This document shows, one piece after another, positions 8,695 to 54,958 of a stretch of 63,987 nt of DNA; position 1 is the first letter of the stretch; each line of letters begins with the position of its first letter. Location of the stretch: IMG/VR virus record IMGVR_UViG_3300047509_000028, positions 1 through 63,987 of that record, one strand, 5' to 3'. The notes beneath the pieces were generated by a model. The model worked only from the letters and a program-made list of their open reading frames with translations. It ran no database searches and was not told the origin of the DNA. The position numbers and the translations under genes are program-made. The stretch is from a virus. Taxonomy: Duplodnaviria; Caudoviricetes.

Positions 8695-9309
8695 ATGTCC
8701 GTCGATCCTGTCAGCTTTCACGACTCTCTAGTAATACGCGCCCGGAACCTGCGCTTCCGTGGTGCTGGCTCGCCCTATGACTTCCTGTCGGATATCGGTA
8801 TCGTACCTATTAAGGAATTCATCTATAAGGGCAGCATGTTAATCGACGTAGCGGAAACGCTAAACGTGTCGGTAACGCAGCTAAAGAACTGGATAGCCAA
8901 CGAAGGGCTAGAGAGTGAAATAGAAGAAGCAAGCATATCCAGCGCAGAAGGCTACATCGCCAACGGCGAACGGCTACTTAAGTCAGCAGAAAATAAGTTC
9001 CAGCTAGACAAAGCGAAAGCCATGATCGAACATGGCCGCTTCATGGCAAGCAAGAAAGATAAAAAGACCTATGGGAATCAGTTGGAGATCACTGGCGGGC
9101 CAGCACAAGTGCATTACGTCTTTGCCGTACCGGCAACATCACAGGTGATGCTTGATGCACAAGCACCGAAGCAACTAGCCATTGATGCAGAGTTTAACGA
9201 AGTACCGCCTGTAAGGCTTGATCCATTAAATCTTGGCTCTGCTCTACCCGCGCGAGCGACAGCGAGCGTAGAATCCGGCGTAACCGCCGTGGAAGTGCAA
9301 GATGCTTAA
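8695..9309 (+). CDS. terminase small subunit (putative)
   Basis: HTH-like segment, KAKAMIEHGRFMASK...YG motif, overlaps the start of terL. Confidence 0.7.
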   Translation: MSVDPVSFHDSLVIRARNLRFRGAGSPYDFLSDIGIVPIKEFIYKGSMLIDVAETLNVSVTQLKNWIANEGLESEIEEASISSAEGYIANGERLLKSAENKFQLDKAKAMIEHGRFMASKKDKKTYGNQLEITGGPAQVHYVFAVPATSQVMLDAQAPKQLAIDAEFNEVPPVRLDPLNLGSALPARATASVESGVTAVEVQDA

Positions 9310-10804
9310 CGAACAACAAGCGGATACTTCTACCCGCAAAACAGTCGTCTACGAAGCCGAGCCGACACCGGCAAAGCTGCACAATGACCGAGGGCTACAG
9401 TTACAGTATCTAGAAGGCCCGATGGGTAGCAGTAAATCCACGTCCTGCATTATGGAGATACTGATGCGGGCGATGCGGCAGAAACCGCACAAGGGCGTTA
9501 GAAAGTCTCGTTGGGCAGTTGTGCGTAATACGTATGGCGAACTGAAAAGCACGACGATTAAGACATTCCAAGAATGGGTGCCCGACAGCATTGCTCCAAT
9601 CGTTTACTCTATGCCGATCATGTGTAAGTTTAAACAGAAACTCGGTGATGGTACGGCGATGCACCTAGAAGTTCTGTTCATGGCGTTGGACACCCCGGAA
9701 GATGCAGCAAAGCTCTTAAGCCTTGAGCTAACAGGCGCCTACGTGAATGAGGGACGTGAAATACCGTGGGAAGTGGTAGAGTTACTCTTGTCGCGTATCG
9801 ACCGCTATCCGAAAGTAGATGAAGGCGGAGCAACTGAACCGGGGGTGCTAGTAGATTCAAACCCACCAAGAAATTCCCATTGGCTATACAGGAAATTTGA
9901 GGCGGATGATACCGTAAGGCTTGTCGTGCAGAACGCGCAGGGTGAGGATATCAACGTCACATGGAGGAAGTATAAGCAACCGCCTGCGGTCTATAAGGAT
10001 CAGATAACAGAGAAGTGGGTGATTAACCCGGATGCGGAGAACCTTAAACACTTATCTCCTAATTACTACGTCAACCAGATGACGTTGGGGGATGAGCATA
10101 TCCGCGTGAATCTCGCAGGCGAGTACGGCATGAGCCGGAAAGGTACGCCGGTCTTTGCGAAGTTCTCGGAGTTAAAGCACGTCAGTAAAGAGATATTACA
10201 GCCGCGTCGCGGTACGCTAGCACTGATGGGGATAGATTTTGGATTACAGCCTGGGGCTGTTATAGGCCAATTAAGTCACAAAGGATTGATGCTCTTAGAT
10301 GAGATTCCTGCTACGGATGAGTCGTTAGAGGACTTCCTAGATCACTACGTGTTGCCTGTACTGCGTACCAGATATCAGGGATATCAGATTGTAGCCTGCG
10401 GCGATCCGAGCGGCGGCGGTCGGCAGAGTATTAATAAGCTCACTAGTATTGGGGTGATGAACAGTAAGGGCATTAAAACCTACCCTGCTATAACGAATAG
10501 CTTTATCAAGCGTAAGGAAGCGGTAGACTGGTTCCTCGGTCGGGATGAAGGGTTTATTGTAAGCAAGAATCTCACGCATATTAGGGAAGTGATGGGGGCT
10601 GGGTATGTTTACAAAGAACAGCGCAACGCGCAAGGCAAGGTGTTAGATATCCCCGATAAAAATGAGTTTAGCCACGTCGCTGATGCGATTCAGTATCTCT
10701 GCCTGTACGCGCGCTATGGCGGCGGGAGTCTCGCAATGGGCGTTGGCGGGGGCGTGTCCGTGAGCGATGGCGGGCCTCCCAAGAAGCGGCACCTATGGGC
10801 TTGA
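9302..10804 (+). CDS. terL: terminase large subunit
   Basis: GPMGSSKS Walker A, AVVRNTY, YVNE Walker B, DSNPP, nuclease GIDFG and SHVADAIQY. Confidence 0.92.
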   Translation: MLNEQQADTSTRKTVVYEAEPTPAKLHNDRGLQLQYLEGPMGSSKSTSCIMEILMRAMRQKPHKGVRKSRWAVVRNTYGELKSTTIKTFQEWVPDSIAPIVYSMPIMCKFKQKLGDGTAMHLEVLFMALDTPEDAAKLLSLELTGAYVNEGREIPWEVVELLLSRIDRYPKVDEGGATEPGVLVDSNPPRNSHWLYRKFEADDTVRLVVQNAQGEDINVTWRKYKQPPAVYKDQITEKWVINPDAENLKHLSPNYYVNQMTLGDEHIRVNLAGEYGMSRKGTPVFAKFSELKHVSKEILQPRRGTLALMGIDFGLQPGAVIGQLSHKGLMLLDEIPATDESLEDFLDHYVLPVLRTRYQGYQIVACGDPSGGGRQSINKLTSIGVMNSKGIKTYPAITNSFIKRKEAVDWFLGRDEGFIVSKNLTHIREVMGAGYVYKEQRNAQGKVLDIPDKNEFSHVADAIQYLCLYARYGGGSLAMGVGGGVSVSDGGPPKKRHLWA

Positions 10805-13594: not shown

Positions 13595-15670
13595 ATGAGC
13601 GCTAATCTGTCCAGCACGAATCCGTTGCTTACTCCAAAGGACGATAATCCCTTAACTAAATACGGGTTGGGCGAGATTAGCAACGTAAAAGTGCAGAACG
13701 CATTAGCGGCGCATGTTAATAAACAGTTTGAATGGAATAAGCAGCATAAAAGAAATATAGGAATCACCGAACGCCTAATTAGAAACTTACGCGCAAAACG
13801 CTGCGAGTATCAGCCAGACGAAAAACTACTGTTAGGGGAATTCAATAATATCTACGTTGCTATCTGTGCGCTAAAAGCCCGCGCCGCAGAATCATGGCTA
13901 ATAGATATCATCGTTAATAATATCGACAAACCGTGGACACTCAACCCTTCGGTAGAGCCAGATTTGCCAGATAGGCTAAAAGAGCAAGTGATTGATGCAC
14001 TTTTACTTGAACTTCCTGAATTTAAAACCTTCGATGCGCTAAAAGACCGCGCGCAGCAGTTGAAGTCGGCGGTACAGAGTATTGCAGTACAGCAAGCGAC
14101 GGCTACTGTGCAGCGCATGGAAACCCATATTCAGGGACAGCTACAAGAAGGCGGATGGGTCGATACGTTCAGCGCGTTTATCGCAGACTTAGTGGTATTC
14201 CCGGCGGCGATGATACGCGGGCCTATCTCAGTAGGCCGACCGACACCTGAATGGGATGGAGATAACTTTACCATCAAGAATGAATCGGTACTAACTACTA
14301 GAACGATTAGCCCATTTAATGCGTATCCCGCGCCGAATTCTTCGACGTGCCAAGACGGCAATAACTTTATCGAAGCGATAGAATACACGCACTCGGATAT
14401 TCACGACTTAATTAGCGTCCCCTCGTTCTTAGAGTCCAACATACGGCAGGTATTAGATAAGTATGCGTTAGGATATACGCCTACAAGAATTGAAGATTCG
14501 ACAAAGAAAGCGCTAGAAGGCAAAGAGCAGCCGCTTACATCGCATTCGACAGGACTAGAAGTACGTATCTATAATGGCAAGATCATAGGGAAGATGCTTG
14601 CCGAAAATGGGGTACTAATCTCCGACCCGCAGAAGTTCTATGAATGCGAAGTATGGGTGATTGGCGAGTACGTTATACGTGCGGTGCTGAACCCGAATCC
14701 ATTAGGTAAACGGCCTATTTACGGCACGTCCTACGTTAAGGTAAACGGCTCGTTTTGGGGCCAAAGCGTTATTGATACAGTGTACGATGTAATGCGCGTA
14801 TGCAATGCCGCATGCCGATCCATCGTACGCAACATGGGCTACGCAAGCGGGCCGGTCGGTGAAGTAGATGCAGGCAGGTTAGCTCCGGGCGAGGACGGCA
14901 CCGAGATAGAACCCTATAAGATATTCCAAGTCGGGCCTGACTTGACCGGCACAGGTGGAGCAGCTTTCAAGTTCCATAATGTGTCGATGATCGCAGGCGA
15001 ACTGAAAGAAGTCTTTGAGTACTACATGAAGTTAGCGGATGATTTATCTGGCGTACCCGCTTACGTACTAGGTAATCCGCAAGTGGCAGGCGCAGGTAGA
15101 ACACTTGGCGGACTTAGTATGCTGATGGGCAACGCTGCGAAGGGCATTAAAAACGTACAGCTTAACATCGACCGTGACGTGATTACGGGTGTAGTGGATG
15201 CGTATTACTACTATAACATGGTCGTGTCTACCGATAACGGCATTAAAGCAGACGCGAAGGTGGTAGCGCGCGGCGCGACGGGTCTGCTACAGCGGGAGTT
15301 GGCGCAGACAAGAACAGTGGAGATACTGCAACTGCTTACGCCGTATGCGCAACAAGGACTGGTATCGCCGCAGGGTATTGAGTACTTACTACGCGAAGTG
15401 TTGAAGCCAACGGGTATGGACATAGACAAGATCATACCTGATCCCGACAAAGCATCCAGCGAGAATGAAATAGGGACGTTGTTGGGGGGACAAGGGCAGT
15501 CTCCATCACCACCGCCACCTGCACTACCGCAGCAAGGAGGCCCACAAACGCCCGTACTAAATACGGGGACTAATACGCCGCCTAGATTACCAGCACAGAG
15601 TCAGCCACCTTTACCTACACCGAATATGCAACCGTTCCCAAAACCAGTTAATCTTCCACAAGGAGCATAA
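13595..15670 (+). CDS. portal protein
   Basis: 691 aa, located between terminase and scaffold/capsid; ADDLSGVP..G...GAGRT..GLSML pattern of podovirus portals. Confidence 0.85.
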   Translation: MSANLSSTNPLLTPKDDNPLTKYGLGEISNVKVQNALAAHVNKQFEWNKQHKRNIGITERLIRNLRAKRCEYQPDEKLLLGEFNNIYVAICALKARAAESWLIDIIVNNIDKPWTLNPSVEPDLPDRLKEQVIDALLLELPEFKTFDALKDRAQQLKSAVQSIAVQQATATVQRMETHIQGQLQEGGWVDTFSAFIADLVVFPAAMIRGPISVGRPTPEWDGDNFTIKNESVLTTRTISPFNAYPAPNSSTCQDGNNFIEAIEYTHSDIHDLISVPSFLESNIRQVLDKYALGYTPTRIEDSTKKALEGKEQPLTSHSTGLEVRIYNGKIIGKMLAENGVLISDPQKFYECEVWVIGEYVIRAVLNPNPLGKRPIYGTSYVKVNGSFWGQSVIDTVYDVMRVCNAACRSIVRNMGYASGPVGEVDAGRLAPGEDGTEIEPYKIFQVGPDLTGTGGAAFKFHNVSMIAGELKEVFEYYMKLADDLSGVPAYVLGNPQVAGAGRTLGGLSMLMGNAAKGIKNVQLNIDRDVITGVVDAYYYYNMVVSTDNGIKADAKVVARGATGLLQRELAQTRTVEILQLLTPYAQQGLVSPQGIEYLLREVLKPTGMDIDKIIPDPDKASSENEIGTLLGGQGQSPSPPPPALPQQGGPQTPVLNTGTNTPPRLPAQSQPPLPTPNMQPFPKPVNLPQGA

Positions 15671-15865: not shown

Positions 15866-16065
15866 TGAAAGAGGGTACGTTGCGGGATTTTAAACAGGCG
15901 ATAGCGACGGGTATTAATCGCCCGTTGCTAGTTTATTATGAAGAAAGGCTGCAAGACGCAATGCAGGGGTTGCTAGTGGCAAACGAAGAAACATTTAAGC
16001 AAAATCAGGGTAGATGTTTAGAGTTACAAGAGTTAATCAAACTAATCAAAAGTATAAGGGAGTAA
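15865..16065 (+). CDS. small head-module protein
   Basis: QG...L..L motif common in small genes between portal and scaffold. Confidence 0.6.
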   Translation: MKEGTLRDFKQAIATGINRPLLVYYEERLQDAMQGLLVANEETFKQNQGRCLELQELIKLIKSIRE

Positions 16066-16069
16066 TACA

Positions 16070-17008
16070 ATGGCACTGCCAGCAAGTGCGCAAGCACAAA
16101 AAGATGCGTTAGAAGCCGCAGGTACGAGTAACGTGAAGCCGATTGAGCCGGTGAAGCCGGTAGAAGTTGTACCGGCCGAAGGTAAAGTCACGATTTCGCG
16201 GGAGGAATTCAATGAAATGCAGGCGGCAGCGGATCGGGTCAAAGCGGCGGAAGGCCGCACTGAGATTCTACAAGGCGATTTGGAGGTCTTGCAGCGCCGC
16301 TTGACAGACTTGGAAACTGCCTCTAAGGGTAAGTCCAGTAGCGATCCTGCACCTGCGCCTGCGCCGGTCGTGGCGATCCCAGCGGTTGCTTATACCGACA
16401 AAGAAAAAGAGGATTACGGCGAGAGCAAGGACTATATCAGGAAAGTAGGCGCAGAGCTTTTAAGTGAAGTAATGCTACCCGCGTTTAAGACGTACGACGA
16501 TAGGCTAGCAGCATTAGAGGAAAAGCTAAATACCGTTAATACCGTAGCAACGCAAGCCAGTCAGCGTACCGCGCAGTCAGCACAGAAGTCGTACACCGAC
16601 AAGGTACGTGAGAAAGTTCCAGAGTTTGATGAATGCGTAAATAGTAAGCACTGGCCTTCGTTTGTGCAAGCAATGGAAGGTATGTCGGGGCTAACATACG
16701 CGGAGTGCATACAAAATAACCTAAACCGCGAAAATGTTGACGGCATGGTCAATGTATTTAATACCTTCAAAACGAAGTACGGTATAGGTAAGAAACCAGA
16801 CGATAGTGGGTATGTAGGAGCAAATCCGTCAGGTACTACAGAAACACCGAACGATGGAACCGAAGGGAAAGAAGTTCTTAAGTTTAGCGACCGTAAAGAT
16901 TTAAACAAAAGGTTCATGTCTGGTAAGATAACCCAAGACGAGTATCAGACTGAAAGGGCAAAGTACGAGTTAGCTGAGAAAGAAGGGCGTCTTAACTACG
17001 ACGCATAA
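16070..17008 (+). CDS. capsid scaffolding protein
   Basis: Acidic coiled coil directly upstream of the capsid gene; C-terminal AEKEGR motif. Confidence 0.75.
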   Translation: MALPASAQAQKDALEAAGTSNVKPIEPVKPVEVVPAEGKVTISREEFNEMQAAADRVKAAEGRTEILQGDLEVLQRRLTDLETASKGKSSSDPAPAPAPVVAIPAVAYTDKEKEDYGESKDYIRKVGAELLSEVMLPAFKTYDDRLAALEEKLNTVNTVATQASQRTAQSAQKSYTDKVREKVPEFDECVNSKHWPSFVQAMEGMSGLTYAECIQNNLNRENVDGMVNVFNTFKTKYGIGKKPDDSGYVGANPSGTTETPNDGTEGKEVLKFSDRKDLNKRFMSGKITQDEYQTERAKYELAEKEGRLNYDA

Positions 17009-17031
17009 AGTAATTAACTAGGAGCATAGAA

Positions 17032-18896
17032 ATGCCAATTCCCGCCGCAGCAGGCTTAACGTCAGCGGCGTTATAAATAAGACAAGGCCCGCTATAGCGA
17101 AAGCTGTAGTAGTAAACCTAGTGAATTGCGGGAAAAGCTGAAACGCCAATCCGCAGCCAAGCCCAGCGATGGGAAGGTTCAACGACTAGGGCATATCGTT
17201 CGCCGTACTGAGTACGGCAATCTCGGGCTATAGGCCCAAAGGATAACAGCATGAATCGGGAAGAACGCGGCATACTTGTGGGTATGGTAATGGGCGATGG
17301 CTGTCTAAGGGTTCGTAAACGATATGAATCCGGTAGGGAAAACCAGACGGTTACACTTTTGCAGATATCGCACTCCATAAAGCAAGTAGATTACTTAAGA
17401 TATAAAGCTGAGAGAGTTAGTAATATCTTAGGAGGTAGGTCCAAAGTAACTTACTACGACGTAAAATTGAAAGGCCATAGTGCAGCATATAAAATGGCAC
17501 GTACCATAAAGGTAAGTAAGTATTTTGAGCAACTAAGAGGTTGGATATACCCTACCGGCAAGAAAGAAATAAATAGTAGGGTATTAGATATGCTCACCCC
17601 AGAAGGGTTAACTCTTTGGTACTTAGATGATGGGCATACGAAGTGGTCTTGGAATAAGGAAGGAAATATAACAGCAGCACAATCTTTATGGGCAGTATGC
17701 TTGCCAGTACCGCAAATATCGCTGCTACAAGAATACCTTTTCGACGTATATGGGTTTGATTCACAAATGGTGATGGTGAATAGTTCTAATATGTTGAATT
17801 TTAAAAGTAAGGTTTCGCACGAAATGCGCGAAATGTTTAGGTCGTATACTCCCGATTCGATGCTGTATAAGATATGCCCCACGAGTGCTAGGCTCCCTCC
17901 GAGACTTAGAAGGGATGAAGATATAGTCTGAGCTTATGGGAATAAGTAACCATAAGAAGTTAGGATAAAGAGCCTAACGATAACATAACTGACCCGCAGT
18001 ACAGCAATAACCTTATCACTCCCCTGTTCCGCATGGAATTGTTGGAGCGTTTCTATACGACTACCGTGTATAGCGACATTTCCACTACGGAATACACAGG
18101 CGAGTTAAATAAGGGTGGCGATCAGATCACGTTCCAGCGCGAGCCAAAGGTCGTGGTTCGTGACTACGATAAGAACGGTAAGATCGTGCACGATACGATT
18201 GATGGTGAGCCGGTCACCATGACGATTGATAACGCTAAGACTTTCTCGATCAAGATGAATATGATCGACGAAAAGCAGATTCAGAACTTCGAGAACTGGA
18301 AAGCGGCATTCCTTAAGAGTGCTGGTTATGAACTTGCGCGTGCGATTGACCCGCAGTTACTTACGGCAATGTGGACAAGCGCAGCGGCGTATAATCAGGG
18401 TCTAACCGCTGGTTTGGTTTCCGCTAACGTCAATATGGGCGTAGCGGGTACACCATTAGCGATTACGAAAACAAACGTAATCGACGTGTTGCAGCAAGTG
18501 CATCAGGTGCTTGACGAAGCGTTAGCTCCGCGCGAAGGTCGTTTTATCGTACTTCCTTCCGCTGGTATGGTTGCGCTTAAGACTAGTGACCTGAAATTCG
18601 CGTATGCAACTGCGTTAAATACGACCCCGATGTTAAATGGTAAGGTTCCAGAAATCGTTGCAGGATTTATTATTTTGGAATCGCAAAATCTTCCGTCAGT
18701 GATTGACGGCGCAGTGCGGGCGTATCACATTGTTGCTGGTGCGAAAATGGCGACTGCGTTTGCCGCACAGATCGAGAATAGTCGTGTTGTAACAGATAAA
18801 GATGATTGGGCGAATTATTATCAGGGTTTATCGGTGTACGGGTTTAAAGTGCTGTACCCGGATGCTATCGTCCACCTGTACGCCAACTTTGCCTAA
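17032..18896 (+). CDS. major capsid protein, spliced: exon 1 17032-17056 and exon 2 17992-18896 (309 aa)
   Basis: AGGAG RBS; joining the exons gives in-frame MPIPAAAG-Y-PQYSNNLITPLFRMELLERFY...; capsid motifs EYTGEL..GGD.I, LDEALAPREGR, GLSVYGFKVL. Confidence 0.88.
17057..17991 (+). mobile_element. group I self-splicing intron (935 nt) in the major capsid gene
   Basis: P GAATTGCGGGAAA, Q AATCCGCAGC, R GTTCAACGACTA, S AAGATATAGTCT; exon ends in U pairing with G of GGCCCGCT (P1); terminal G at 17991. Confidence 0.92.
17251..17931 (+). CDS. intron-encoded LAGLIDADG homing endonuclease
   Basis: Two motifs, ILVGMVMGDG and LTLWYLDDG; lies between the intron R and S elements. Confidence 0.9.
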   Translation: MNREERGILVGMVMGDGCLRVRKRYESGRENQTVTLLQISHSIKQVDYLRYKAERVSNILGGRSKVTYYDVKLKGHSAAYKMARTIKVSKYFEQLRGWIYPTGKKEINSRVLDMLTPEGLTLWYLDDGHTKWSWNKEGNITAAQSLWAVCLPVPQISLLQEYLFDVYGFDSQMVMVNSSNMLNFKSKVSHEMREMFRSYTPDSMLYKICPTSARLPPRLRRDEDIV

Positions 18897-18909
18897 TAGG
18901 AGAATATAA

Positions 18910-19482
18910 ATGGCAACGCATGAACTCTACTTAGGCGGCCCGTCTAATACAAATAGCGGGCAGAAGATGTTTCCCGCCGCAGCGTTTAACAACGCAATTG
19001 CGCCGTTTACTACTATGCCCGTTGCGGAGCATAAAGCTACTACGGTAGCTGCGCTAACGCGCACGTTAGCATTCGGTACGTCGCAAGGCAGGCCGGATGA
19101 CCCGGCGTTAGCCGAATACGTTCGCAATCATACGATTGCAGCAGCAGACGTACTGGACTTAATCGTTATACCGGCAAACACGTTACTGCTGGGCGTGTAC
19201 TGCCAAGTAGAAAATCCGTCGGGTAAGGTAGGTACGATTACGTTTAGCTTAGACGATGGTACGACGTTCGGCGCTGCGGTAGATATAAATGCCGCATTCA
19301 GTAAGATGGTTGCTCCGGGCGGCGCATGGGTATCGGCGGGCGCAGTTAGTTTGGCTACCGCGAACTTCTCGAATGTCGTACGCATGCTAAAAGCTACGTT
19401 AACTACGCTAGCTACCGATTTTGGTGCGTTACGTATTAGCGTATCTCCGATCCTGATTGCATTGCAGCAAGGGCAGTACTAA
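18910..19482 (+). CDS. virion structural protein (capsid decoration-like), paralog A
   Basis: Follows the capsid gene, AGGAG RBS; highly similar to the next ORF. Confidence 0.7.
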   Translation: MATHELYLGGPSNTNSGQKMFPAAAFNNAIAPFTTMPVAEHKATTVAALTRTLAFGTSQGRPDDPALAEYVRNHTIAAADVLDLIVIPANTLLLGVYCQVENPSGKVGTITFSLDDGTTFGAAVDINAAFSKMVAPGGAWVSAGAVSLATANFSNVVRMLKATLTTLATDFGALRISVSPILIALQQGQY

Positions 19483-19494
19483 TAGGAGAGTAGT

Positions 19495-20409
19495 ATGGCA
19501 ACGCATGAGTTGTACGTAGGCGGCCCTGCTAACCCTAATCAAGGACTGCGGATGTTTCCGGCGGCGGCATTTAGTAATGCCGCTAAGCCGTTTACGACAA
19601 TGGACATTGCGCAGCACAAGCAGACGCTTGTAGCTGCGTTAACTCGTACGCTAGCGTTTGGTACGTCACAGGGAAGGCCGGACGACCCCGCACTAGCGGA
19701 GTATGTGCGGACGCATGTAATAGCTGCTAACGACGTATTGGACTTAATCGTTATCCCGGCAAATACGCTACTGTTAGGCACATACTACAACGTAGAGAAT
19801 CCACAGGCAGGTGTAGCGCTAGCATTTACGCTAGACGATGCTACGACATTTGGCGGGGCTAATCAATTAGCCGCACCAGTACAAGCAGCAGGCTCTACGG
19901 TAGCTGTAGGTGGTACGGTAACTGACGGGGATCATTTTTACGTAATTACCGCAATTACGGCGTTGGGCGAAACCACTAAGTCTAACGAAATTAAAGTTAC
20001 CGCAGCGGGCGGCAACTTATCAATTAACACGCTGAATTGGGGCGCTGTAGCTGGCGCAACCGGATATAGGGCATATAGGGGCGTAGTTACTGGGGTATAC
20101 ACCACGTACATAGCTTTTGGTGCAGTAGTAACGGGCGACGATACGGGTGCGGCGGGTACAGCAGGTACTCCGCCAACGACTAACACAAGCGGCAATAGTG
20201 TCTATACAGATACAGCTAGTAGTAAATTCTCAGTGCCCAACGGGGCAGCATGGGTCACTGCTGGCTCGGCGACGTTAGCTAACGCGAACTTTTCCAACGT
20301 ACCGAGAATGCTGGGTGCTAAAGTTGTTGCGCTAGGGGCGGCAGGTTTCGGCAGTCTACGGGTAAGCATATCGCCGCTCGTAGTGCAGTTATGGCAAGGG
20401 CAATATTAA
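19495..20409 (+). CDS. virion structural protein, paralog B with a ~113-aa inserted beta-rich domain
   Basis: Same MATHELY...QGQY framework as paralog A plus an insertion at ~19861-20199. Confidence 0.7.
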   Translation: MATHELYVGGPANPNQGLRMFPAAAFSNAAKPFTTMDIAQHKQTLVAALTRTLAFGTSQGRPDDPALAEYVRTHVIAANDVLDLIVIPANTLLLGTYYNVENPQAGVALAFTLDDATTFGGANQLAAPVQAAGSTVAVGGTVTDGDHFYVITAITALGETTKSNEIKVTAAGGNLSINTLNWGAVAGATGYRAYRGVVTGVYTTYIAFGAVVTGDDTGAAGTAGTPPTTNTSGNSVYTDTASSKFSVPNGAAWVTAGSATLANANFSNVPRMLGAKVVALGAAGFGSLRVSISPLVVQLWQGQY

Positions 20410-34495: not shown

Positions 34496-34830
34496 GTATT
34501 CTTAGAAGTAATAACAAACTAAACATTGCAACCCAGCAGAGTTTAGCAGAATACGGTATTGCGCGCGAAGAAGCAGTGAAAGGCTCCAAGAAAATCAAAG
34601 GCTCTGAGCCTAAGTATTTCATTATGGAGCGCGAAGGAAAGGATTATAACCTCAGTTTTCCGGCTAACCTAGAATCTCTACCCACCAGTAAGGGGCAGAG
34701 TTTAGCCATCGTAGCGCCGGATAATGAGGCATTCGACTTACTCGCGCCAAAGAACTTTTCAGAGAAGTTGTCTTTTAAAGATACGAAAAGCATCCGTAAA
34801 TACCTTAGCAGACTATTGGATACCCTGTAA
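34492..34830 (+). CDS. hypothetical protein
   Basis: ATGA/TAATG coupling on both sides. Confidence 0.6.
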   Translation: MSILRSNNKLNIATQQSLAEYGIAREEAVKGSKKIKGSEPKYFIMEREGKDYNLSFPANLESLPTSKGQSLAIVAPDNEAFDLLAPKNFSEKLSFKDTKSIRKYLSRLLDTL

Positions 34831-37800
34831 TGGACGGATCAGGATATAACTTACCTAGCAGCCCGTACGTACCGCCGAGTAACGTACCGGCGTTGCCGCC
34901 TGCGTACCAGCCGCGTAACTTTGATGCGCCTCCGGGGTATACGCCACAACCGGCGCAGACGTACGATCCACAGGCAGATATACAGCGGCTAGGTTTAGGC
35001 AAACCGCCTGAGCAGATGAACTTCGATCCTGCGTTAGACGGGTCGGGAAACTACAATGTGCGGGATGAAAGCCATCCAGATTCTATCTACGCTAAGCATT
35101 TAGCGAATGGCGGCCAACCACCAGATACAATAAACGACTGGTACGCTAAAGCCAAAGCGATGAAAGGGTCGGATTTAGACGACAAAGAACAAGACGCACT
35201 AGCGGGTAATTATAGGAATCAACTAGAGAAGTTTTACTTAGACCGTGGCGCTAAACCAGCGTTTATTAAAGGGACTTTATCACTGTTCGATAAAGGCTTA
35301 CCCGCATGGAAGAAGTCGGTTACGCCCGCAGAGGCTACGGCTACCAAAAATACAGATAGCCCATTAACTACATTCGGCTACGAAGCGGAAAACAAAACTG
35401 TATACGGAATACCCTCCGATCTAGCGCAGATAGCTTCTGGTGGGGCAGAGTTAGCTGAAAAAACGGTGAATGCTCCGGCTAGATACGGTACTGAACTTTA
35501 TAACTACTTCACTGGGGGTAATCGCGTAGCTCCGCAAACACATGCGATATCTGACATTCTAGGCAATATAGCGAATCCGGCGTTAGGCGGAGCAGGGGCT
35601 AGCGCACAAGATTACGCTACGCAGCAAACTAAAGCTGTAATGGGCGCAAACTATAACGATCCGCAGTACGCTAAATTGCGGGCAGACCTAACTGCGCAGA
35701 ATATGGCGAAAGCTACAGGTACGCAGGCTCCCGCGATAGCGGGCGGGGCCGGATTACCAGCGGGGTATGCTCCTACTAATACGCCGTTACCCGAGCGGTC
35801 TTTAGGTAACATAGAAGAATTGACTAGAGAAAGAAACGCAGCGACGAATCCTATATCGTCTGCGGGTGGTGATCTAGCAGGTACGTTAGCCGAGATATTC
35901 CTAACGCGGAAAATACCCGCGCTAAAAGGAATGAATCCGTCTACGTACTGGAAAATAGTAGCGCCGTTATTAGCGGCACAGACGGGAACTGAAACGGCTA
36001 GAGAGCAAGTGGGTACGCCGCAAGGTGTTAGTATGGGGCAGTTAGCGGCAGACTACCCTGTAGATACCGCTATGAATCTAGCGGGAACGCATCTACCAGT
36101 TAAGAGCGGTACGATACGCGCATTATCAGGTGCGGGCATAGGTGCTGTTGAGTCTGCGGTGAGAGGACTTATAGATAAAGCAGTAAATCCAGATCAGAAT
36201 ACCGGCTCCCCATATGCAGGAATGGGGCCGCAAGCTACGTTAATGGCGATCATGGCGGCTTTGTCTAAGGCTCCCATAGGAGGGGCGAAGCCGCTGAAAG
36301 GCGGTAAAACTGATACCACGCAAACTACGAATACCGTAACGCCCCCGCCAGCAGGCGGCGCAGGTGGTACAGTAGAACCACAAGCTGCGCAGCCCGCAGC
36401 AGGCTTACCTACGTCCATTACGGAAGCACCGGGAGCGGGCATAGCGGGTAAGGCGTACACAGACTTAGAAGATACGTCGATAGACAAAACTGCAAAGCGT
36501 GAAGCTGCAATTAAGAAAACATTAGGCGCAGCGAAGGCAACCCCACAAGGCGTTATTCATGCAGCAGCTACGCTTGCGCAGAAGTACGCAGGCGAAACAT
36601 GGGCGGATATGTCCGCAGAGCAACGCGCTAACTTAACGGCTACCGTAGCGCAAAAGATACATGGAGCAGGCGAAGCATCACCGCCTATTTATGCAGTCGA
36701 AGGGACACAGGAAGCAATTAACGCAATACGTGATGCAGCAAAACCCGCACCAGCGCCAGCACCGACAGCCCCAGCCGGGGGCGAAACCGCGATGCCTGCG
36801 GACGTGGCGGCGGCGGTGGGCGGTACTCAGGTTCCCGGCACAGTCGAACCGGCTCCTGCGAGCGCTGGCGAAGCTCCTGCGGCCCCTGCGCCGGTCGATC
36901 CCGGCACGGCGGAAGCCCTGCGCGCGTTACCCCATGTAGACCCGAACGCGAAAGATAGTAATGGGCCAGTAGCAAAGAAATATGCTCCGCAGATTGCCGC
37001 ATTAGGGCATGATCCTAGCCAGATATCAAAAGCGCAAGCGGGTTATATCTTAGGGCATTCGTTAACCGCTGAACAGTTACAGGGTGTGCTGCACACTCCG
37101 GGGGAAGCACCGGGACAGGCCGCACCTGCACATGTGGCAGACGAGATACATAGCGTATTAAATGATGCGAACAATGAACCTACTACGGTAAAAGGACAGG
37201 GCGATAAGTTAGCTAAGACGGTCGCTAAGATAAAAGCGGCGCAGAATAAGCAGGCAGCTAGAACGACACAACAAGCGGTCAACCCGCTAACAGCACGTCC
37301 AGAACCTATCGTCTTGCCCCCCGGCCCGGATGCCGAACGTACTAACGTCGGCGGTAGTACAGCTAGGAAAGGAACGAAAGCGCAGCTTGCGAGGCAGGAA
37401 GCGATTAACAAGGCGGCGGATGCAGCGGATGCCGCCGAGAAGTTTAAGCCTATAGCGCAGCAGTATTTCCAGAATTTCACGGAGAACCTGAATAGGGGTA
37501 ACTTACCGTACTTCCAAGAATTACGAACACGCTGGCGGAAAGGAGAATTTAATTCGCCGGATCAACGCGAACAACAGCTTCAAGATGCGTTTAAGCAGGA
37601 ACAAGAAATAGCATCTAAGCCTTTAGTTAAGACGAAGCCTAGTAACGTACTGACGACGAAACAAGCGCATGGCGGCTTACTTACCAAGAAAGGTGTCACT
37701 GCGTCCGAAGCACCGAAGCCCGCAGATACCAGCCCGAAAATGTCTGACTTGCTCGCAAAGAAGGGTAAAGGGTTAACTAAGAGCGATTCTGAGACAATCG

Positions 37801-40800
37801 CTAAGGCCAAGATGATCGCAGGCGTTCTGAAAGGCTACGGACATACAGACGAAGCCATAGGGAAAATGAGCGTACAGGAAGCGGCTGATGCAATGGATAA
37901 GGAGTTTCAAGGAACGAAAGGGAAGCCAGCGGAGAAACCTACGCCCCCAAAAACGGAAGCCTCCGCACCAAAAGCGGAGGCGCAACAGGAAAAGGTAAGC
38001 CTAAAAAATAAACTTGCGCTGATTACGAAAGACGAAAACTTAACTCCGAAGCAGGCGGGCGATCTTATACGCGCAGTGGAAACGGCACAACAAGGCAATC
38101 ATGAAGCACTTAATGACGTACTGGCAGAACACGCCTTTGATAAGTCGTTAACTAAAGCAATTAAGAAACTCGCACAAGAAGATTACGTTTCTCCGCGCGA
38201 GCAGTCCAAAGCTCAAATACGTGCGTTAGACGAAGAAGCAGCTAGAGGTAAAGAAGGACTAGATGCCGACGAAAATCTTGCCCCGCGTGAAGCGTCGGAA
38301 GTAAGTGATGTAACACAACCAATGGAGTTGCGATTTGCAAAAGAGGAAGAACTAGGGGAAGAATTAAGCAACGAGCCGACTCCGCAACATATTCAATCTA
38401 AGATAGACGATATCAACGAGCGCGCTAGAGCGGGGATACTAACCTACGAAGATGCGCGTACGCAGATACGCGAACTACGCGAAGAAGCACAGGCCGAAAA
38501 CCAGCGCGGTAGCGAGGGGGTACAATCCCGTCTTTACCGTATGGAACGGAATAGCGACGAAGGCTCAAAGCCTGCTATCCGCATGGCGCAGTGGTTACTT
38601 AAGAATAACCCGAACCTAGCGAAAGGTTTAGGTATAGGGCTGAAACATATGTCCGAAGCGGGCAGGTATATTCCTGACCGCGCTTTAGCGTTCATTGCTA
38701 AAAGTGGGGTAGGAGTGCGTACTATTATTCACGAGATACTGCACCATACAGAGAAGATGCTACCCCCGGATATTCAGGAACGCATACGTGCGGAGTACAC
38801 CGCGCGGCTGCTAAATAAGCAGAAACAGGCGGAGACCACCAATAACGAAGCCTTGAAAGGTTATCTAGATGCGGTGCGTACGAACCTAATCCATCCTACG
38901 GAGGAAAACCGTAAAGCAGCTTTAGAGTTTATAACTAATAAATCTGTTGATCCGAAAGAGTATAAGTATCTCGATCCTTCCGAGTACTGGGCGGAAACAG
39001 GCTCGGGCATCTTACGCCGCAACCACGAGGCGGGTTCGTGGATCGGCAAAGCGCGTAATTGGATACAAGAGTATACAGAACACGCAAAAGCCGTTTTAGG
39101 ACTGGATAGCGATTCCGCTGTTTACAAAGGGCTTAAGAGCTTAACCGCTTCCGAAGGCGAAGCGCTTTCTACGCGGCAACTTAATAAGTCTGAGGCTTCA
39201 CAGGCCAGCCTAGAAAATAAAGACCCTAGTGAATACACCGATAAGGACGTAGAGGAATTAAACAAGGAACAAAAGTCTGAGCCTATCTTGAACCGCTCCG
39301 CAGTCGGCAACGTACAGAAGGTAGTGGAATATCTAGCCAATAAGCGCGAAGGTATCGCGCAGACTATGTATGCACTTACACGCGGCGGAGTGAAAGTAAC
39401 CGATAGTAACAACATATTTAGTCGGTTCTATAACTACGAGGGTCTAAAGCTAGAGCATAATTATATCGACGACGCCGAGGTATACAACCCGCTAAATAAC
39501 TTCGTGCATGGCGAATACGCTAAAACACACGGCACGCCGCAAGAGTACATGAATGACGTGAACGATTGGTTCAGGGCGAGAATGTGGTTGGATCATGCCC
39601 ATTACTTATGGACGCGCGATGTACCATTAAAAGAAGGCCAAGAAGTTGTTAGGCAGGGACTACTAGAGGACTTGCTAGACAACAAGACAAGCCCCGAAGC
39701 GAAGCGTATTGCACAAAATAGGATCGCGGAGAAGTACGCGGCTACACCAGAACGTGAGTACATGATAAAGAACGGCGTGCCGGTAGATAAACTAGAAGCG
39801 ACTCTTAGCACACTCGCTAAGAAGGGCATGGACGAGAAAAGCTTAAAGCCATTGAACGATATGATGCAGCCCGTACGTGACCGTACGACGCAGCGCAGAA
39901 TCGCATCCGGCGAATTATCGCAAGAAGATATACGTCTACGGGACTCTGTAGGCGACAAGTGGTATGTACCATTGAAAGGGCCGCCAGACGGCGTACGCGA
40001 TAACCAGAACCAAGATATCATATCGCAAGGCATTAACACCCGTCGATATTCCGAGCAGATACAGATAGCAGAAGGCCGCAAGTCGGAAGCGGAAAAGCCA
40101 TTCTATCGGCTGATTATGGATATGCACCGCGCTGGCGAACGGCAAGCGATGCACCCGGTTACGGAAACTATTTATAATGCGATGCTGGATGCGAACGATA
40201 GAATAGACGAGCTACAGCCGAAGCTGGATAAGTTGCGCGCTGCGCGCAATGCCGGGACTATGACGCAAGCAGAGTATGCAGAGAAAGCAAAGCCGCTTAA
40301 GCAACAGCTACTAGACCTACGTAATGCGTCTGGTAAAATAAGCGTATATAAAGGTAACTTGGCTAGAGGGTTTACCGATGAAGCCGGTACGGAAACGCCG
40401 ACCCTACCAGTTGGCCGGTACGATGTAGTTTATAATGACGGCGATACGCACTACGTTATGGGGCTACACGCAGATAGCCAGCTATTACGCGGACTTGTTT
40501 TGCAGTCTCAGACAGTCGTACCCGTAGCGCCAGTGAGGGCGATTGGCGCAGCTACCAACGCATTTGCGCGCATTGCTACCTCAGTGAATATACCGTGGGA
40601 TACCTTAGTGCAGTTCCCGCGCCAGTGGACATTTACGCCGTTGTTGCTTGCTACGGCGAAGTTCGATAACCCATTACAGGGCGCAGCGTTCATAGCGAAG
40701 AATACGGTAAACAATATCAAGATGCTTGGGGCCATACGCAGCATCCCCGCGCGCATGATGGGAGACTTAGCCGCACTAAAAGAATACGCCGCACAGAATC

Positions 40801-42260
40801 CTAATTCCCCCGCCGCATGGGTAGCGGACTACGAAGCACATGGCGGGCGTATAGGACATACGTTAGGCTTTAACCAGAGTAATGCAGAACGGTTGTTTTT
40901 AAATAAGTTCTCCGATATCGACTATACGAAACTAAGTGCGATAAAGCAATTTCCAGAAGCAGTATGGCAGCGTATAGTAAAATACTCAGGCGCTTATCTT
41001 TCGGCGTTGGATACGTTTACTCGCGCAGGATCATATAAGACCCTAGTAGACTCAGGAGTAGAACCGACACAGGCGGCGGCAGACGTGCGCGCAACACTGG
41101 ATTACTCTACCGCAGGACGGTGGAGCGGTACGATGAATAGTCTGTTCGCGTTTAGTCGCACAGGTCTTACGTCGCTGGATGCTGCACGTCGCGCATTTGT
41201 TAGCCCCGAAGGTAAGTTCGATTACGTTAAATTCGGTAAGTGGCAGGGGTTCTTAGGGGCCGTAGGCGCAGGAATCGCATACCCACTAATGAATGCGTTG
41301 TTGGGTAAAGATGAGGACGGCAAAGACCGTATGGCGAAAATCGCGCCTGATACACTAACGCAGCAATTCGTTATGCCAATTGGGGATAAGGTGATTAAAA
41401 TACCCATCGGGCAGGGCTTGCCACAGATGATGCTAGCCCCCGGTATATTGGCCGGGGCGGTCATGCACGGACACATGACGTTCAAGGAAGCGGTAGACGC
41501 ATACAAGGAAACGCTACGCCGTAATACGCCGCGCCCGTTGCAGCCGGGGCGCGTTGCAGGGCATTCCCCTATGCAGATCATAGCAGCGTCGGCGTTAGGC
41601 TTAACTCCTACGTTAGCGTCACCGCCTGCGGAAATGAATGCGAATGTCAACGCATTTGGACTACCGATCCATACGGAGCACTATGATCCGAAGCTACCTA
41701 TGTCGGAACAAGGTATGAAGAATACCCCGCAGGAGTTTAAAGATATCGCTCGCTGGATGCACAATACCGCACACTACGACGTATTCCCCGAGGACGTGCG
41801 CTATATTGCGCAGGCGTATGGCGGTTCGATGGTGAATAGCATTATACGTGCAGCGGTAAGTGATCGTCCATTCTTGGATCAGGGCGAACAGCCAATAGAT
41901 ACAGGATTGCTTAGCAAGGCAATCAGTAATGACGAGCAGTTCTATCTAAGCAGGAAACTGCATTCCACGATAGAAGATTTGCAGGATAACGGGCAACGGT
42001 ACAATACTCTTATTGCGCGGGCAGAAGCGGATGGGGCGAGTAAGGAAGAAGCGAAAGCAAAAGCGGATCAAGTGAAAAACTCAGACCCGGAATTTAAGCA
42101 GGGGCTTGATGCGTACGATAAACTTAATTCGGCGCAGATGAAATACTATAAAGACTTATCCGCTATGCGGAAAGATAAGATGCTAAGCGACGAGCGTAAA
42201 GCGATACTACGTAAGCAGTACGATAGTACATTACGTAAAGTACTAGAAGCGACACAATAA
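34830..42260 (+). CDS. giant (2476 aa) ejected polyvalent protein with a zincin-like HExxH domain and an LPD38-like C-terminus
   Basis: TIIHEILHH...SEYWAE metallopeptidase-like motif; WYVPL and LDYS..G......NSLFAF motifs; last gene of the virion module. Confidence 0.7.
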   Translation: MDGSGYNLPSSPYVPPSNVPALPPAYQPRNFDAPPGYTPQPAQTYDPQADIQRLGLGKPPEQMNFDPALDGSGNYNVRDESHPDSIYAKHLANGGQPPDTINDWYAKAKAMKGSDLDDKEQDALAGNYRNQLEKFYLDRGAKPAFIKGTLSLFDKGLPAWKKSVTPAEATATKNTDSPLTTFGYEAENKTVYGIPSDLAQIASGGAELAEKTVNAPARYGTELYNYFTGGNRVAPQTHAISDILGNIANPALGGAGASAQDYATQQTKAVMGANYNDPQYAKLRADLTAQNMAKATGTQAPAIAGGAGLPAGYAPTNTPLPERSLGNIEELTRERNAATNPISSAGGDLAGTLAEIFLTRKIPALKGMNPSTYWKIVAPLLAAQTGTETAREQVGTPQGVSMGQLAADYPVDTAMNLAGTHLPVKSGTIRALSGAGIGAVESAVRGLIDKAVNPDQNTGSPYAGMGPQATLMAIMAALSKAPIGGAKPLKGGKTDTTQTTNTVTPPPAGGAGGTVEPQAAQPAAGLPTSITEAPGAGIAGKAYTDLEDTSIDKTAKREAAIKKTLGAAKATPQGVIHAAATLAQKYAGETWADMSAEQRANLTATVAQKIHGAGEASPPIYAVEGTQEAINAIRDAAKPAPAPAPTAPAGGETAMPADVAAAVGGTQVPGTVEPAPASAGEAPAAPAPVDPGTAEALRALPHVDPNAKDSNGPVAKKYAPQIAALGHDPSQISKAQAGYILGHSLTAEQLQGVLHTPGEAPGQAAPAHVADEIHSVLNDANNEPTTVKGQGDKLAKTVAKIKAAQNKQAARTTQQAVNPLTARPEPIVLPPGPDAERTNVGGSTARKGTKAQLARQEAINKAADAADAAEKFKPIAQQYFQNFTENLNRGNLPYFQELRTRWRKGEFNSPDQREQQLQDAFKQEQEIASKPLVKTKPSNVLTTKQAHGGLLTKKGVTASEAPKPADTSPKMSDLLAKKGKGLTKSDSETIAKAKMIAGVLKGYGHTDEAIGKMSVQEAADAMDKEFQGTKGKPAEKPTPPKTEASAPKAEAQQEKVSLKNKLALITKDENLTPKQAGDLIRAVETAQQGNHEALNDVLAEHAFDKSLTKAIKKLAQEDYVSPREQSKAQIRALDEEAARGKEGLDADENLAPREASEVSDVTQPMELRFAKEEELGEELSNEPTPQHIQSKIDDINERARAGILTYEDARTQIRELREEAQAENQRGSEGVQSRLYRMERNSDEGSKPAIRMAQWLLKNNPNLAKGLGIGLKHMSEAGRYIPDRALAFIAKSGVGVRTIIHEILHHTEKMLPPDIQERIRAEYTARLLNKQKQAETTNNEALKGYLDAVRTNLIHPTEENRKAALEFITNKSVDPKEYKYLDPSEYWAETGSGILRRNHEAGSWIGKARNWIQEYTEHAKAVLGLDSDSAVYKGLKSLTASEGEALSTRQLNKSEASQASLENKDPSEYTDKDVEELNKEQKSEPILNRSAVGNVQKVVEYLANKREGIAQTMYALTRGGVKVTDSNNIFSRFYNYEGLKLEHNYIDDAEVYNPLNNFVHGEYAKTHGTPQEYMNDVNDWFRARMWLDHAHYLWTRDVPLKEGQEVVRQGLLEDLLDNKTSPEAKRIAQNRIAEKYAATPEREYMIKNGVPVDKLEATLSTLAKKGMDEKSLKPLNDMMQPVRDRTTQRRIASGELSQEDIRLRDSVGDKWYVPLKGPPDGVRDNQNQDIISQGINTRRYSEQIQIAEGRKSEAEKPFYRLIMDMHRAGERQAMHPVTETIYNAMLDANDRIDELQPKLDKLRAARNAGTMTQAEYAEKAKPLKQQLLDLRNASGKISVYKGNLARGFTDEAGTETPTLPVGRYDVVYNDGDTHYVMGLHADSQLLRGLVLQSQTVVPVAPVRAIGAATNAFARIATSVNIPWDTLVQFPRQWTFTPLLLATAKFDNPLQGAAFIAKNTVNNIKMLGAIRSIPARMMGDLAALKEYAAQNPNSPAAWVADYEAHGGRIGHTLGFNQSNAERLFLNKFSDIDYTKLSAIKQFPEAVWQRIVKYSGAYLSALDTFTRAGSYKTLVDSGVEPTQAAADVRATLDYSTAGRWSGTMNSLFAFSRTGLTSLDAARRAFVSPEGKFDYVKFGKWQGFLGAVGAGIAYPLMNALLGKDEDGKDRMAKIAPDTLTQQFVMPIGDKVIKIPIGQGLPQMMLAPGILAGAVMHGHMTFKEAVDAYKETLRRNTPRPLQPGRVAGHSPMQIIAASALGLTPTLASPPAEMNANVNAFGLPIHTEHYDPKLPMSEQGMKNTPQEFKDIARWMHNTAHYDVFPEDVRYIAQAYGGSMVNSIIRAAVSDRPFLDQGEQPIDTGLLSKAISNDEQFYLSRKLHSTIEDLQDNGQRYNTLIARAEADGASKEEAKAKADQVKNSDPEFKQGLDAYDKLNSAQMKYYKDLSAMRKDKMLSDERKAILRKQYDSTLRKVLEATQ

Positions 42261-53758: not shown

Positions 53759-53977
53759 TTAAAGTTTATACCACTTTTCTACGTAACTCGGCCCTTCTAC
53801 AGAACCGTCGGGGTACAATATACACCTACCCGACGCAGGTAAACGCCATCTATAGCACTTATACACGCCTAGCACTAAACTTACGGTAGGTTTAGCCCAT
53901 CGCTTAGTTTCTTCGCCGTCGTGATCTATAAGTACGATGCGTCTACGGCCTAGTAATTCAGCTATTCTATTTAGCAT
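53759..53977 (-). CDS. hypothetical protein
   Basis: Overlaps the end of the Pol C-terminal gene; fills the operon. Confidence 0.5.
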   Translation of the reverse strand: MLNRIAELLGRRRIVLIDHDGEETKRWAKPTVSLVLGVYKCYRWRLPASGRCILYPDGSVEGPSYVEKWYKL

Positions 53978-54287
53978 CGCCGTACCTTATAGCCGTACTG
54001 CACTCTACGCCTAGCGGTAGCCCCGGTAAATAATCTGGTGTCGTAGACATAATCCCTATTGCTGCGTCAAGGTACAAATCTTCTTCGTTCTCTGGTACTA
54101 ACGAAACCATTTCATCGTACGTCGTCATTACGACCGGGTAGAGCTTATTTAACTTCGCCTTATGCTGCTTCAAAATAATAGCGCTCACTGCTTGGCAGCA
54201 GTTAGATACCAGAAGGGGTTGGCCGTCTGTGCCGCGCACAGTGAACCTATGGTTTGGGCCTGTATTACGTATGTCGTAGACTTTCAT
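53967..54287 (-). CDS. DNA polymerase A C-terminal fragment fused to split-intein C part (IntC 29 aa plus 77-aa extein)
   Basis: MKVYDI...HRF...LLVSN|C intein blocks F/G, then CCQAVSA...YDEMV...LPLGVE...RYG PolA motif C and end. Confidence 0.88.
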   Translation of the reverse strand: MKVYDIRNTGPNHRFTVRGTDGQPLLVSNCCQAVSAIILKQHKAKLNKLYPVVMTTYDEMVSLVPENEEDLYLDAAIGIMSTTPDYLPGLPLGVECSTAIRYGDAK

Positions 54288-54958
54288 TCTAATCGGTTCC
54301 TTACATCGGGTTCTATGAATAATTTATCTTCGGGCCATCCTGCCATGATGCGGTAACTTAGGGTGGTATGGTTAATTCCATATTCCGTAGCTGCGTCGCT
54401 AAGTAGCATTCTACCTTTAGGAGTATTGACCCATACATTGCTTCGTGTGTTCCCGGTCTGTATCTTTCTTGATACCCAACGACAGTTATTCTTGTTATAG
54501 TTACCGTTATTATCTTCTCTATCTAACGTAAGTCCGGGCATGTACTTTTCTGCCATATCCTCCCAAAAAGCCTCAAAAGTACTCCATCTTTCGCAAACAG
54601 AAATGCCTCTTGCGCCGTAATTAGCGTAAGCTTGGTGGGTAGGCAGACGACACCTATCCTGCATAGATCGCCAAACTGCATACGCAGGATGGTGGGACAT
54701 ACCATGTGTTTTATTACTATCCGATATACCTTGTTTGAGATTGCACCCACAAGATTTTATCTTGCCTTTCGTTAGTTCAGTTCCCGCCATTATCTTTTCT
54801 ACGCCGCAGTCGCAGCGTATAAGCCATTGCGATTTACCTTTACCCGAACCGGCGTAACTAATCGCTTCTAACATGCCGCTACGGAAGCCGGTAATGTCTT
54901 TGGTAAGACGCCGCTGCTTCCTCATAGGTGGTGGTATTGGCTTCTGTCCACTGTTCAT
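54284..54958 (-). CDS. free-standing HNH-family homing endonuclease
   Basis: CDCG..KSCGC, W..M..RC, NYGARGI.VCERW, LTLDR.DNNGNY...NCRW motifs; different frame from both Pol fragments. Confidence 0.85.
   Translation of the reverse strand: MNSGQKPIPPPMRKQRRLTKDITGFRSGMLEAISYAGSGKGKSQWLIRCDCGVEKIMAGTELTKGKIKSCGCNLKQGISDSNKTHGMSHHPAYAVWRSMQDRCRLPTHQAYANYGARGISVCERWSTFEAFWEDMAEKYMPGLTLDREDNNGNYNKNNCRWVSRKIQTGNTRSNVWVNTPKGRMLLSDAATEYGINHTTLSYRIMAGWPEDKLFIEPDVRNRLE

Follow-up and report, generated by a model that had tools for sequence, protein, structure and literature searches.

How does a tailed phage make its major capsid protein when the gene for it is broken almost as soon as it has begun? 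The question is raised by the genome of an uncultured tailed phage from a soil metagenome (IMGVR_UViG_3300047509_000028), whose virus record, complete at 63,987 bp, we analyzed at full length and refer to as the window. Here the capsid gene opens with a very short first exon and is then interrupted by an insert that carries an open reading frame (ORF) for a LAGLIDADG homing endonuclease. The first-pass annotation, made from the letters of the DNA, had proposed that a group I intron with such an endonuclease lies in codon 9 of the major capsid gene. That observation is confirmed: the insert matches the Rfam group I intron model (RF00028, E = 1e-10), its ORF matches PF03161 at 76 bits, and the insertion falls after codon 8 plus one base. 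The explanation that we favor, and regard as very probable, is a mobile group I intron with a LAGLIDADG endonuclease that resides in the late operon and is predicted to splice the capsid pre-mRNA.

Can the ends of the insert be placed exactly? Joining position 17056 to 17992 gives GGC TAC CCG, in frame with the 287-amino-acid ORF at 18033-18896, and the spliced product would be 309 amino acids long. In a blind in-silico scan of all T/G boundary pairs, scored with a capsid hidden Markov model (HMM), this pair was the single best (178.5 bits), and the conserved Gly-Tyr was lost when both boundaries were shifted by one base in either direction. Reading of the unspliced RNA from the true start yields a 14-amino-acid peptide ending at TAA 17074-17076 and, as had been claimed, does not continue into the capsid frame.

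Intron-less homologues gave the same answer. With the exon-2 translation as a protein query we found 236 relatives, and the best 120 of the 236 were all 308 to 318 amino acids long. The best homologue (P0001; 309 amino acids, 90% identical) starts MPIPAAAGYPQYSNNLITPLFRMELLERF, which is exactly the predicted spliced N terminus, and M-x-x-x-x-A-x-G-Y-P-Q-Y-S opens 12 of the 12 capsid homologues fetched. The earlier claim that removal of 17057-17991 restores the frame is borne out by these natural N termini. At the DNA level, IMG/VR contained 25 related loci; 4 ended too close to the 5′ end of the gene to be informative, and all 21 informative ones were continuous across the site, that is, without the insert. 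One of the intron-less relatives (L001) has the leader and ribosome-binding site of the window followed by an unbroken capsid gene. Because intron-less homologues are continuous across the junction, the intron boundaries are fixed. The site displays a presence/absence polymorphism, in that none of the 21 informative relatives carries the intron, including the one with the 90%-identical capsid.

The host gene is, by its profile matches, a P22-coat-like major capsid protein gene (phrog_267, E = 6e-38; PF19821, 28.4 bits versus a cut-off of 25), with a profile match over the full length, and the gene order (terminase, portal, scaffold-like gene, capsid gene) fits its position in a block of head genes. 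Could this protein be made without splicing? A free-standing endonuclease cassette might have been inserted into the gene, with the capsid protein translated from Met23 (ATG 18033). This ATG does start the 287-amino-acid ORF, and a naive gene call returns just that product, so the warning in the first-pass annotation that ORF callers truncate the protein was justified. However, there is no ribosome-binding site in front of ATG 18033, and the 22 residues that would be missing are conserved in 12 of 12 homologues. The alignment with the closest solved capsid protein, gp6 (PDB 8e16), begins at residue 14, and because this lies upstream of Met23, the sequence from the 3′ splice site to ATG 18033 reads as genuinely coding. 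The insert, moreover, combines a complete, covarying group I core with precise U/G boundaries at which the frame is restored. We regard the chance of a cassette bypassed from Met23 as next to negligible, and we return to the spliced intron as the preferred reading.

Is the insert a group I ribozyme? The RF00028 match extends over 17063-17407 (47.5 bits; E = 1e-10 when the region is searched, 5.6e-9 for the whole window, and 1.3e-12 for the genome), and a separate 3′ piece at 17916-17946, comprising the S element and P9, scored 12.7 bits. The conserved core is present, with P3 to P8, the P, Q, R, and S elements, and the P3-P7 pseudoknot. These elements, the U·G splice pair of P1 (U17056·G17086), and the terminal G17991 lie where the first-pass annotation had located them. 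P1 consists of this wobble, six Watson-Crick pairs, and one A·C mismatch, with four pairs contiguous; written from the splice site with the prefix 170 omitted, it reads U56·G86, C55-G87, G54-C88, G53-C89, A52×C90, C51-G91, G50-C92, and A49-U93. Introns of subgroup IA, the phage type, have extra helices P7.1/P7.2 between P7 and P3′. In the window this interval holds the endonuclease ORF and, between P7 and the ORF, hairpins; an assignment to subgroup IA would be tentative. An intein was rejected in view of the stop codons in the exon frame and an ORF with its own start, as were a group II intron (no match, and a group I core is present) and frameshifting or recoding (the insert is 935 nucleotides [nt] long with a ribozyme).

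Covariation establishes the fold. We gathered related introns as relatives of the intron ORF and aligned 17 of them with MAFFT (the window and 16 whole relatives from homologous capsid genes, at other sites), onto which the helices of the window were projected. Paired cells made up 80.1% of the total compared to 69.7% in column shuffles, with 0 of 500 shuffles reaching the observed value, and pairing dropped to 30 to 51% once partners were slid by 1 to 3 columns. P3 was 91% paired, with compensatory changes on both sides in 4 of 6 pairs; P4 was 100% paired and included one G-C to U-A compensatory pair (3 versus 14 sequences); P6 and P6a were 100% paired; and P7 was 97% paired, with pair 17182/17929 being A-U in 9 sequences and G-C in 8. 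The P2 helix was 77% paired, with compensatory changes in 5 of 5 pairs. Introns at capsid position 42 have a U before the intron and a G at its end in 11 of 11 cases, and each of the 11 has a U·G-closed P1 formed with its own, differing exon. The boundary scan was ambiguous for five loci (L028, L032, L108, L122, and L049), which were not used.

The ORF within the intron is an intact LAGLIDADG_2 gene. Its match to PF03161 (76.2 bits versus a cut-off of 25; E = 3.7e-21) covers 164 of 168 profile positions, and it also matches phrog_11023. All 8 aligned sequences share both motifs, G15-D16-G17 and D126-D127-G128, unchanged, which is consistent with a predicted two-motif, single-chain enzyme. The nearest solved structure is I-SceI (E = 3e-4, residues 84-208). 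Seven other clusters among 5.8 billion are related at E ≤ 0.001, the five closest being 44 to 49% identical (P0122 to P0126). As a single query the endonuclease found no relative in IMG/VR; a profile search did find some. The G+C content of the ORF is 0.41 versus 0.49 for the genome, and AGGA lies seven bases upstream of the start as a ribosome-binding site of its own.

The endonuclease gene and the ribozyme share sequence. The last 45 nt of the ORF double as P3′, P8, J8/7, and P7′, and the stop TGA 17929-17931 provides three paired P7 bases; the C-terminal ..DIV-stop, which also ends several relatives, is the S element read as protein. Because the ORF traverses P3′, P8, and J8/7 and ends inside P7, a ribosome completing the endonuclease would exclude the folded ribozyme, and we infer that full translation of the endonuclease and a folded ribozyme are mutually exclusive on one RNA molecule. 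A two-tier hairpin precedes the endonuclease start in most members when sequences are folded singly and inspected by eye; RNAalifold gave no consensus for it. The endonuclease ribosome-binding site was paired no more than in shuffles (mean of 0.65 versus 0.56, not significant), and since this shuffle control fails, we do not claim translational repression via the hairpin. As a side observation, five relatives (L070, L071, L072, L101, and L032) have a Cys-rich endonuclease extension of 40 to 80 residues, encoded in the counterpart of the P8 loop of the window.

How, then, would the capsid protein be made? The pre-mRNA would consist of the capsid ribosome-binding site, eight and one-third codons, the 935-nt intron, and the remaining capsid gene. 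The ribozyme would fold into P1 to P9.1 with the P3/P7 pseudoknot, and free guanosine would attack after U17056, wobbled with G17086. The freed exon end would in turn attack after G17991, joining ...GGCU to ACCC... and restoring the 309-amino-acid protein. Without splicing, translation from the true start would give the 14-amino-acid peptide, and a Met23 product would be short of the 22 conserved residues. By analogy to homing endonucleases, the I-SceI-like enzyme would cut the intron-less capsid allele of co-infecting relatives, and repair of the cut would copy the intron into the empty allele. Across the 21 intron-less relatives, the insertion site differs at 4 to 7 of 30 bases, even at 35% capsid protein identity; such high conservation fits the usual strategy of homing endonucleases.

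Could the interruption have arisen during assembly? The record is a metagenome assembly, and the assembler might have joined an intron-like segment into the capsid gene; a second contig of the source run (X1, 6.4 kb) does contain 42 nt of the intron core (window 17148-17189) with 5 differences. However, one 40.6-kb contig of the same run spans 16400-19000 with zero differences and flat depth, and a chimera would not place the insert exactly at the frame-restoring U|...G| position. A chimeric origin strikes us as hardly credible at all, and the intron remains our reading of the insert. In the one source DNA run, we found neither a contig of the locus lacking the intron nor a joint spanning it. 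Because the 6.4-kb contig carries 42 nt of the core, at least one further group I intron of the same type is present in the same sample.

We then asked how widely such introns occur. An RF00028 match at E ≤ 0.01 lies right beside the ORF in 11 of 13 loci with distant endonuclease relatives. With an HMM of the window's capsid family, 27 of the 144 fetched loci were found to have the endonuclease flanked by capsid exons; some of the 27 are the same contig in two collections. The breaks fall at profile positions ∼42-43 (15 loci), 91-113 (5 loci), 208-209 (4 loci), and 222-235 (1 locus), and none of the 27 is at codon 9, in a fetched set outside which lie the contigs encoding P0122 to P0126. In a maximum-likelihood tree, endonucleases that share an insertion site group together (support of 100/100 for both the site-95 and the site-208 group), and the window endonuclease forms its own clade (97/99) with P0122 to P0126. 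Related introns (e.g., L026, L036, L070, and L101) resemble that of the window in ribozyme architecture, in endonuclease family and position, and in capsid family, whereas they occupy at least four other capsid positions (about 42, 91-113, 208, and 222-235) and their endonucleases are 25 to 41% identical and fall into separate clades.

Several further observations were made among these loci. Some capsid genes have more than one intron, as judged from two Rfam matches in L035 and a long gap before the next capsid exon in L096. A 108-kb viral contig has four separate RF00028 matches within 2.6 kb (L030:1966-4488; best, 77 bits), in a host gene unrelated to the capsid family of the window. At L032:1103-1790, a capsid first exon of ∼66 nt is followed by ∼610 nt with a different LAGLIDADG-type ORF (motif LIDGEG); Rfam gave no group I match for this insertion, which is a second start-proximal insertion in the capsid family. 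Xanthomonas phage DES1 (L171; OK624832, 31402-31470) matches the intron core over 69 nt (79%), within a gap without annotation that separates an ORF labeled "terminase family protein" from one labeled "large terminase protein," with a hypothetical ORF between; this looks like an unannotated terminase intron.

What weighs against a mobile intron that splices? The RF00028 score is 2.5 bits short of the gathering cut-off of 50, because the core is split into two halves by the 681-nt ORF. The Rfam search that the first-pass annotation had suggested was thus negative at the gathering threshold, where Rfam returned two tRNAs and nothing else, and positive by E value; the intron is visible with E-value thresholds and not with the gathering threshold. 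Despite the cut-off, we take the match to be far beyond chance and its E value to be decisive. P8 was 61% paired and P9 and P9.1 were 49 to 59% paired in the automatic alignment, figures that we attribute to MAFFT misregister, since compensatory changes are visible by eye. No convincing P10 was found, in that ACCCGC finds no pairing partner in the bases 5′ of the guide sequence, and local minimum-energy folds favor a hairpin (17043-17048/17065-17070) and a longer P2 over P1. The contigs of the five closest endonuclease relatives were left out of the site comparison. Finally, RNA splicing is predicted here from sequence, and the activity, target, and homing of the endonuclease are predicted from family membership.

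The Rfam score slightly below the cut-off, the lack of an evident P10, and the A·C mismatch in P1 could also point to a decayed or inactive intron, a relic in a defective phage or a capsid pseudogene. However, all core helices are intact in the window, and invariant core bases are common to it and the 16 relatives. The endonuclease ORF retains both motifs and is intact, and the genome rates as complete, with all of its other late genes intact; the capsid exons, 90% identical to an intact homologue, have no frameshift and no stop. Decay is very unlikely in light of these data, and the mobile, splicing intron is the reading that we carry forward.

How new is such an intron? The first-pass annotation had held that phage group I introns are mostly reported in other kinds of genes; this is only partly true, and the rarity of capsid-gene introns was overstated, as published cases exist in LittleE and crAss-like phages and we found relatives of the intron in homologous capsid genes of at least 26 related loci. 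The nearest structural likeness for the endonuclease is I-SceI, from the group I intron of yeast mitochondrial large-subunit rRNA (PDB 1r7m, among others), which is likewise a LAGLIDADG_2 single chain of similar length with two motifs; sequence similarity is very low, and the two are unrelated in host, target gene, and target site. According to Pope et al. (2013, PMC3706429), the capsid gene of mycobacteriophage LittleE (Cluster J) has a group I-type intron of 819 bp that carries a LAGLIDADG ORF, and splicing of this intron was demonstrated by reverse transcription-PCR and by N-terminal sequencing across the junction; a capsid intron in lactococcal phage Tuc2009 is cited there as well. As described in that source, the LittleE intron shares with ours a location in the major capsid gene of a tailed phage, the U before the intron and the G at its end, a LAGLIDADG ORF, and presence in only some relatives. 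It differs in that the endonuclease ORF is on the opposite strand, whereas that of the window is on the sense strand and overlaps the 3′ core of the ribozyme; in that the insertion is further in, after the delta domain, and not at codon 9; in that the authors were unable to type the intron firmly; and in that the capsid subunit is distantly HK97 related, whereas ours is P22-coat-like by Pfam and PHROGs (PMC3706429).

In Yutin et al. (2021, PMC7886860), capsid genes of crAss-like phages are reported to contain one to several group I introns each, and a figure legend for the transcription gene block glosses LAGLIDADG as an intron-encoded endonuclease maturase. These are also metagenomic phages with a capsid gene split by group I introns recognized through their endonuclease domains; they belong to another phage order and another capsid family (PMC7886860). 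Our endonuclease gave weak tblastn matches to crAss-like records. A further literature search returned giant-virus and unrelated cases only. We found no literature description of a first exon this short or of a multi-site capsid intron family, though no search was aimed at either. Capsid-gene group I introns are already known, and what is new here is minor: a first exon of just 25 nt, and an intron family with several insertion sites that is restricted to a single capsid family.

Does translation interfere with splicing? The T4 td intron with I-TevI undergoes guanosine-initiated self-splicing, its exon frame stops a few codons into the intron, and its endonuclease ORF lies in a peripheral region, where translation must be kept from disrupting the ribozyme. 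Unlike the intron of the window, td has a GIY-YIG enzyme, a nucleotide-metabolism host gene, and a long first exon. In the window, only 25 nt separate the AUG from the 5′ splice site. By this geometry, P1 or the guide sequence would be covered whenever a ribosome starts on unspliced RNA or terminates at 17074-17076, and therefore translation and splicing must compete. Splicing might conceivably gate late assembly.

The ribosome-binding region of the capsid gene (ACUAGG, 17017-17022) is complementary to the P3 5′ strand (17117-17122), and five of its six bases (CUAGG) are identical to the P3 3′ strand (GCUAGG). This pairing appears in the ensembles of some nascent lengths with a probability of 0.27 to 1.0. 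Occlusion of the ribosome-binding site was no greater than in spliced RNA (0.63 to 0.83 versus 0.68), and 5 of 100 shuffles equaled it; we keep the modeled pairing as a speculation at low odds. A joint picture can be drawn, which we consider unlikely. In it, an undescribed radiation of group I introns with I-SceI-like endonucleases would be restricted to one capsid family, with no fewer than five sites occupied and endonuclease clades tracking sites; at codon 9, where the splice site lies in or near the footprint of the initiating ribosome, ribosome loading would race P1 formation, and intron folding would be a real gate on capsid production. Such a gate might be helped by the 17017-17022/17117-17122 pairing before the 3′ half of the intron has been transcribed.

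Table 1. Positions of the capsid exons, intron elements, endonuclease ORF, and upstream head genes in the window
Feature	Position	Strand	Basis or remark
Small and large terminase	8695-10804	+	
SU10-type portal	13595-15670	+	
Scaffold-like gene, 312 amino acids, coiled-coil	16070-17008	+	
Shine-Dalgarno AGGAG of capsid gene	17020-17024	+	Same leader in intron-less relative L001
Capsid exon 1, 25 nt, 8 codons and first base of Tyr9, ends GGCT	17032-17056	+	ATG 17032-17034
P1 5′ strand, exon side; U17056 is the splice-site U	17049-17056	+	Pairs with 17086-17093
Group I intron, 935 nt, begins TAACG, ends AACTG	17057-17991	+	RF00028 and intron-less homologues
In-frame TAA closing the exon-1 frame on unspliced RNA	17074-17076	+	
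Internal guide sequence (P1 3′ strand)	17086-17093	+	
P2 hairpin, GAAA loop	17094-17107	+	Rfam alignment
P3	17117-17122 with 17887-17892	+	Covariation
P element	17124-17135	+	
P4	17127-17132 with 17150-17155	+	Rfam alignment, covariation
P5, short, 2-bp helix	17137-17146	+	Rfam alignment
Q element	17148-17157	+	
P6/P6a, GCGA loop	17157-17177	+	Rfam alignment, covariation
R element	17176-17189	+	P7 5′ strand within 17179-17188
P7	17179-17188 with 17924-17931	+	Covariation
Putative guanosine-site G-C pair member G17184	17184	+	In R element
Peripheral hairpins between P7 and ORF	17203-17244	+	Second one (17220-17244) pairs part of endonuclease ribosome-binding site
LAGLIDADG_2 homing endonuclease ORF, 226 amino acids, 681 nt	17251-17931	+	PF03161, phrog_11023, I-SceI
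P8 hairpin	17894-17915	+	Read from sequence
S element	17918-17929	+	J8/7 and P7 3′ strand, 17918-17931
P9	17933-17956	+	Rfam alignment, folding
P9.1	17959-17978	+	Rfam alignment, folding
Intron terminal G	17991	+	Only boundary pair restoring conserved Gly-Tyr
Capsid exon 2, 301 codons including split Tyr	17992-18896	+	phrog_267, PF19821

The capsid gene lies in a head-and-tail gene block that runs on the + strand from ∼8.7 to 42.3 kb. After the scaffold-like gene comes the split capsid gene, followed by genes for structural, tail-fiber, and internal-virion proteins; the block is closed by a 2,476-amino-acid ORF (34830-42260, +) whose sole recognized domain is LPD38 (large polyvalent protein). 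A megablast of 16000-19500 against GenBank phages gave no match. Directly 3′ of the capsid gene are two paralogous ORFs (18910-19482 and 19495-20409, +) alike in their N-terminal part (MATHELY.GGP...MFPAAAF...) and at their C-terminal end, with no match in Pfam or PHROG; they may be head decoration or fiber proteins. Within their PAAA codons, 12 bases are identical to capsid exon 1 (TCCCGCCGCAGC).

Elsewhere in the genome, the family-A DNA polymerase gene also seems to be split (53970-56828, − strand). A 649-amino-acid ORF with exonuclease and polymerase domains (54882-56828) is followed by an overlapping ORF for a 224-amino-acid HNH endonuclease (54287-54958) and then by a 106-amino-acid ORF (53970-54287) whose profile matches are to the C-terminal end of DNA polymerases. 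Rfam shows no group I core in this region, which could represent an unrecognized intron or a gene broken by a free-standing endonuclease.

What does the intron mean for this phage and its relatives? Automatic annotation of the locus leaves a capsid protein 22 residues short and an orphan "hypothetical" ORF, and recognizing the intron mends both. With its short first exon and an ORF that ends inside P7, the locus is a convenient natural construct for interference between translation and ribozyme folding. The intron itself is not a new kind of element. It is one well-delimited addition to the picture of the late capsid gene as a favored home of homing-endonuclease introns in uncultured phages, and the capsid gene, as the most highly expressed late gene, is presumably favored owing to its strongly conserved DNA.

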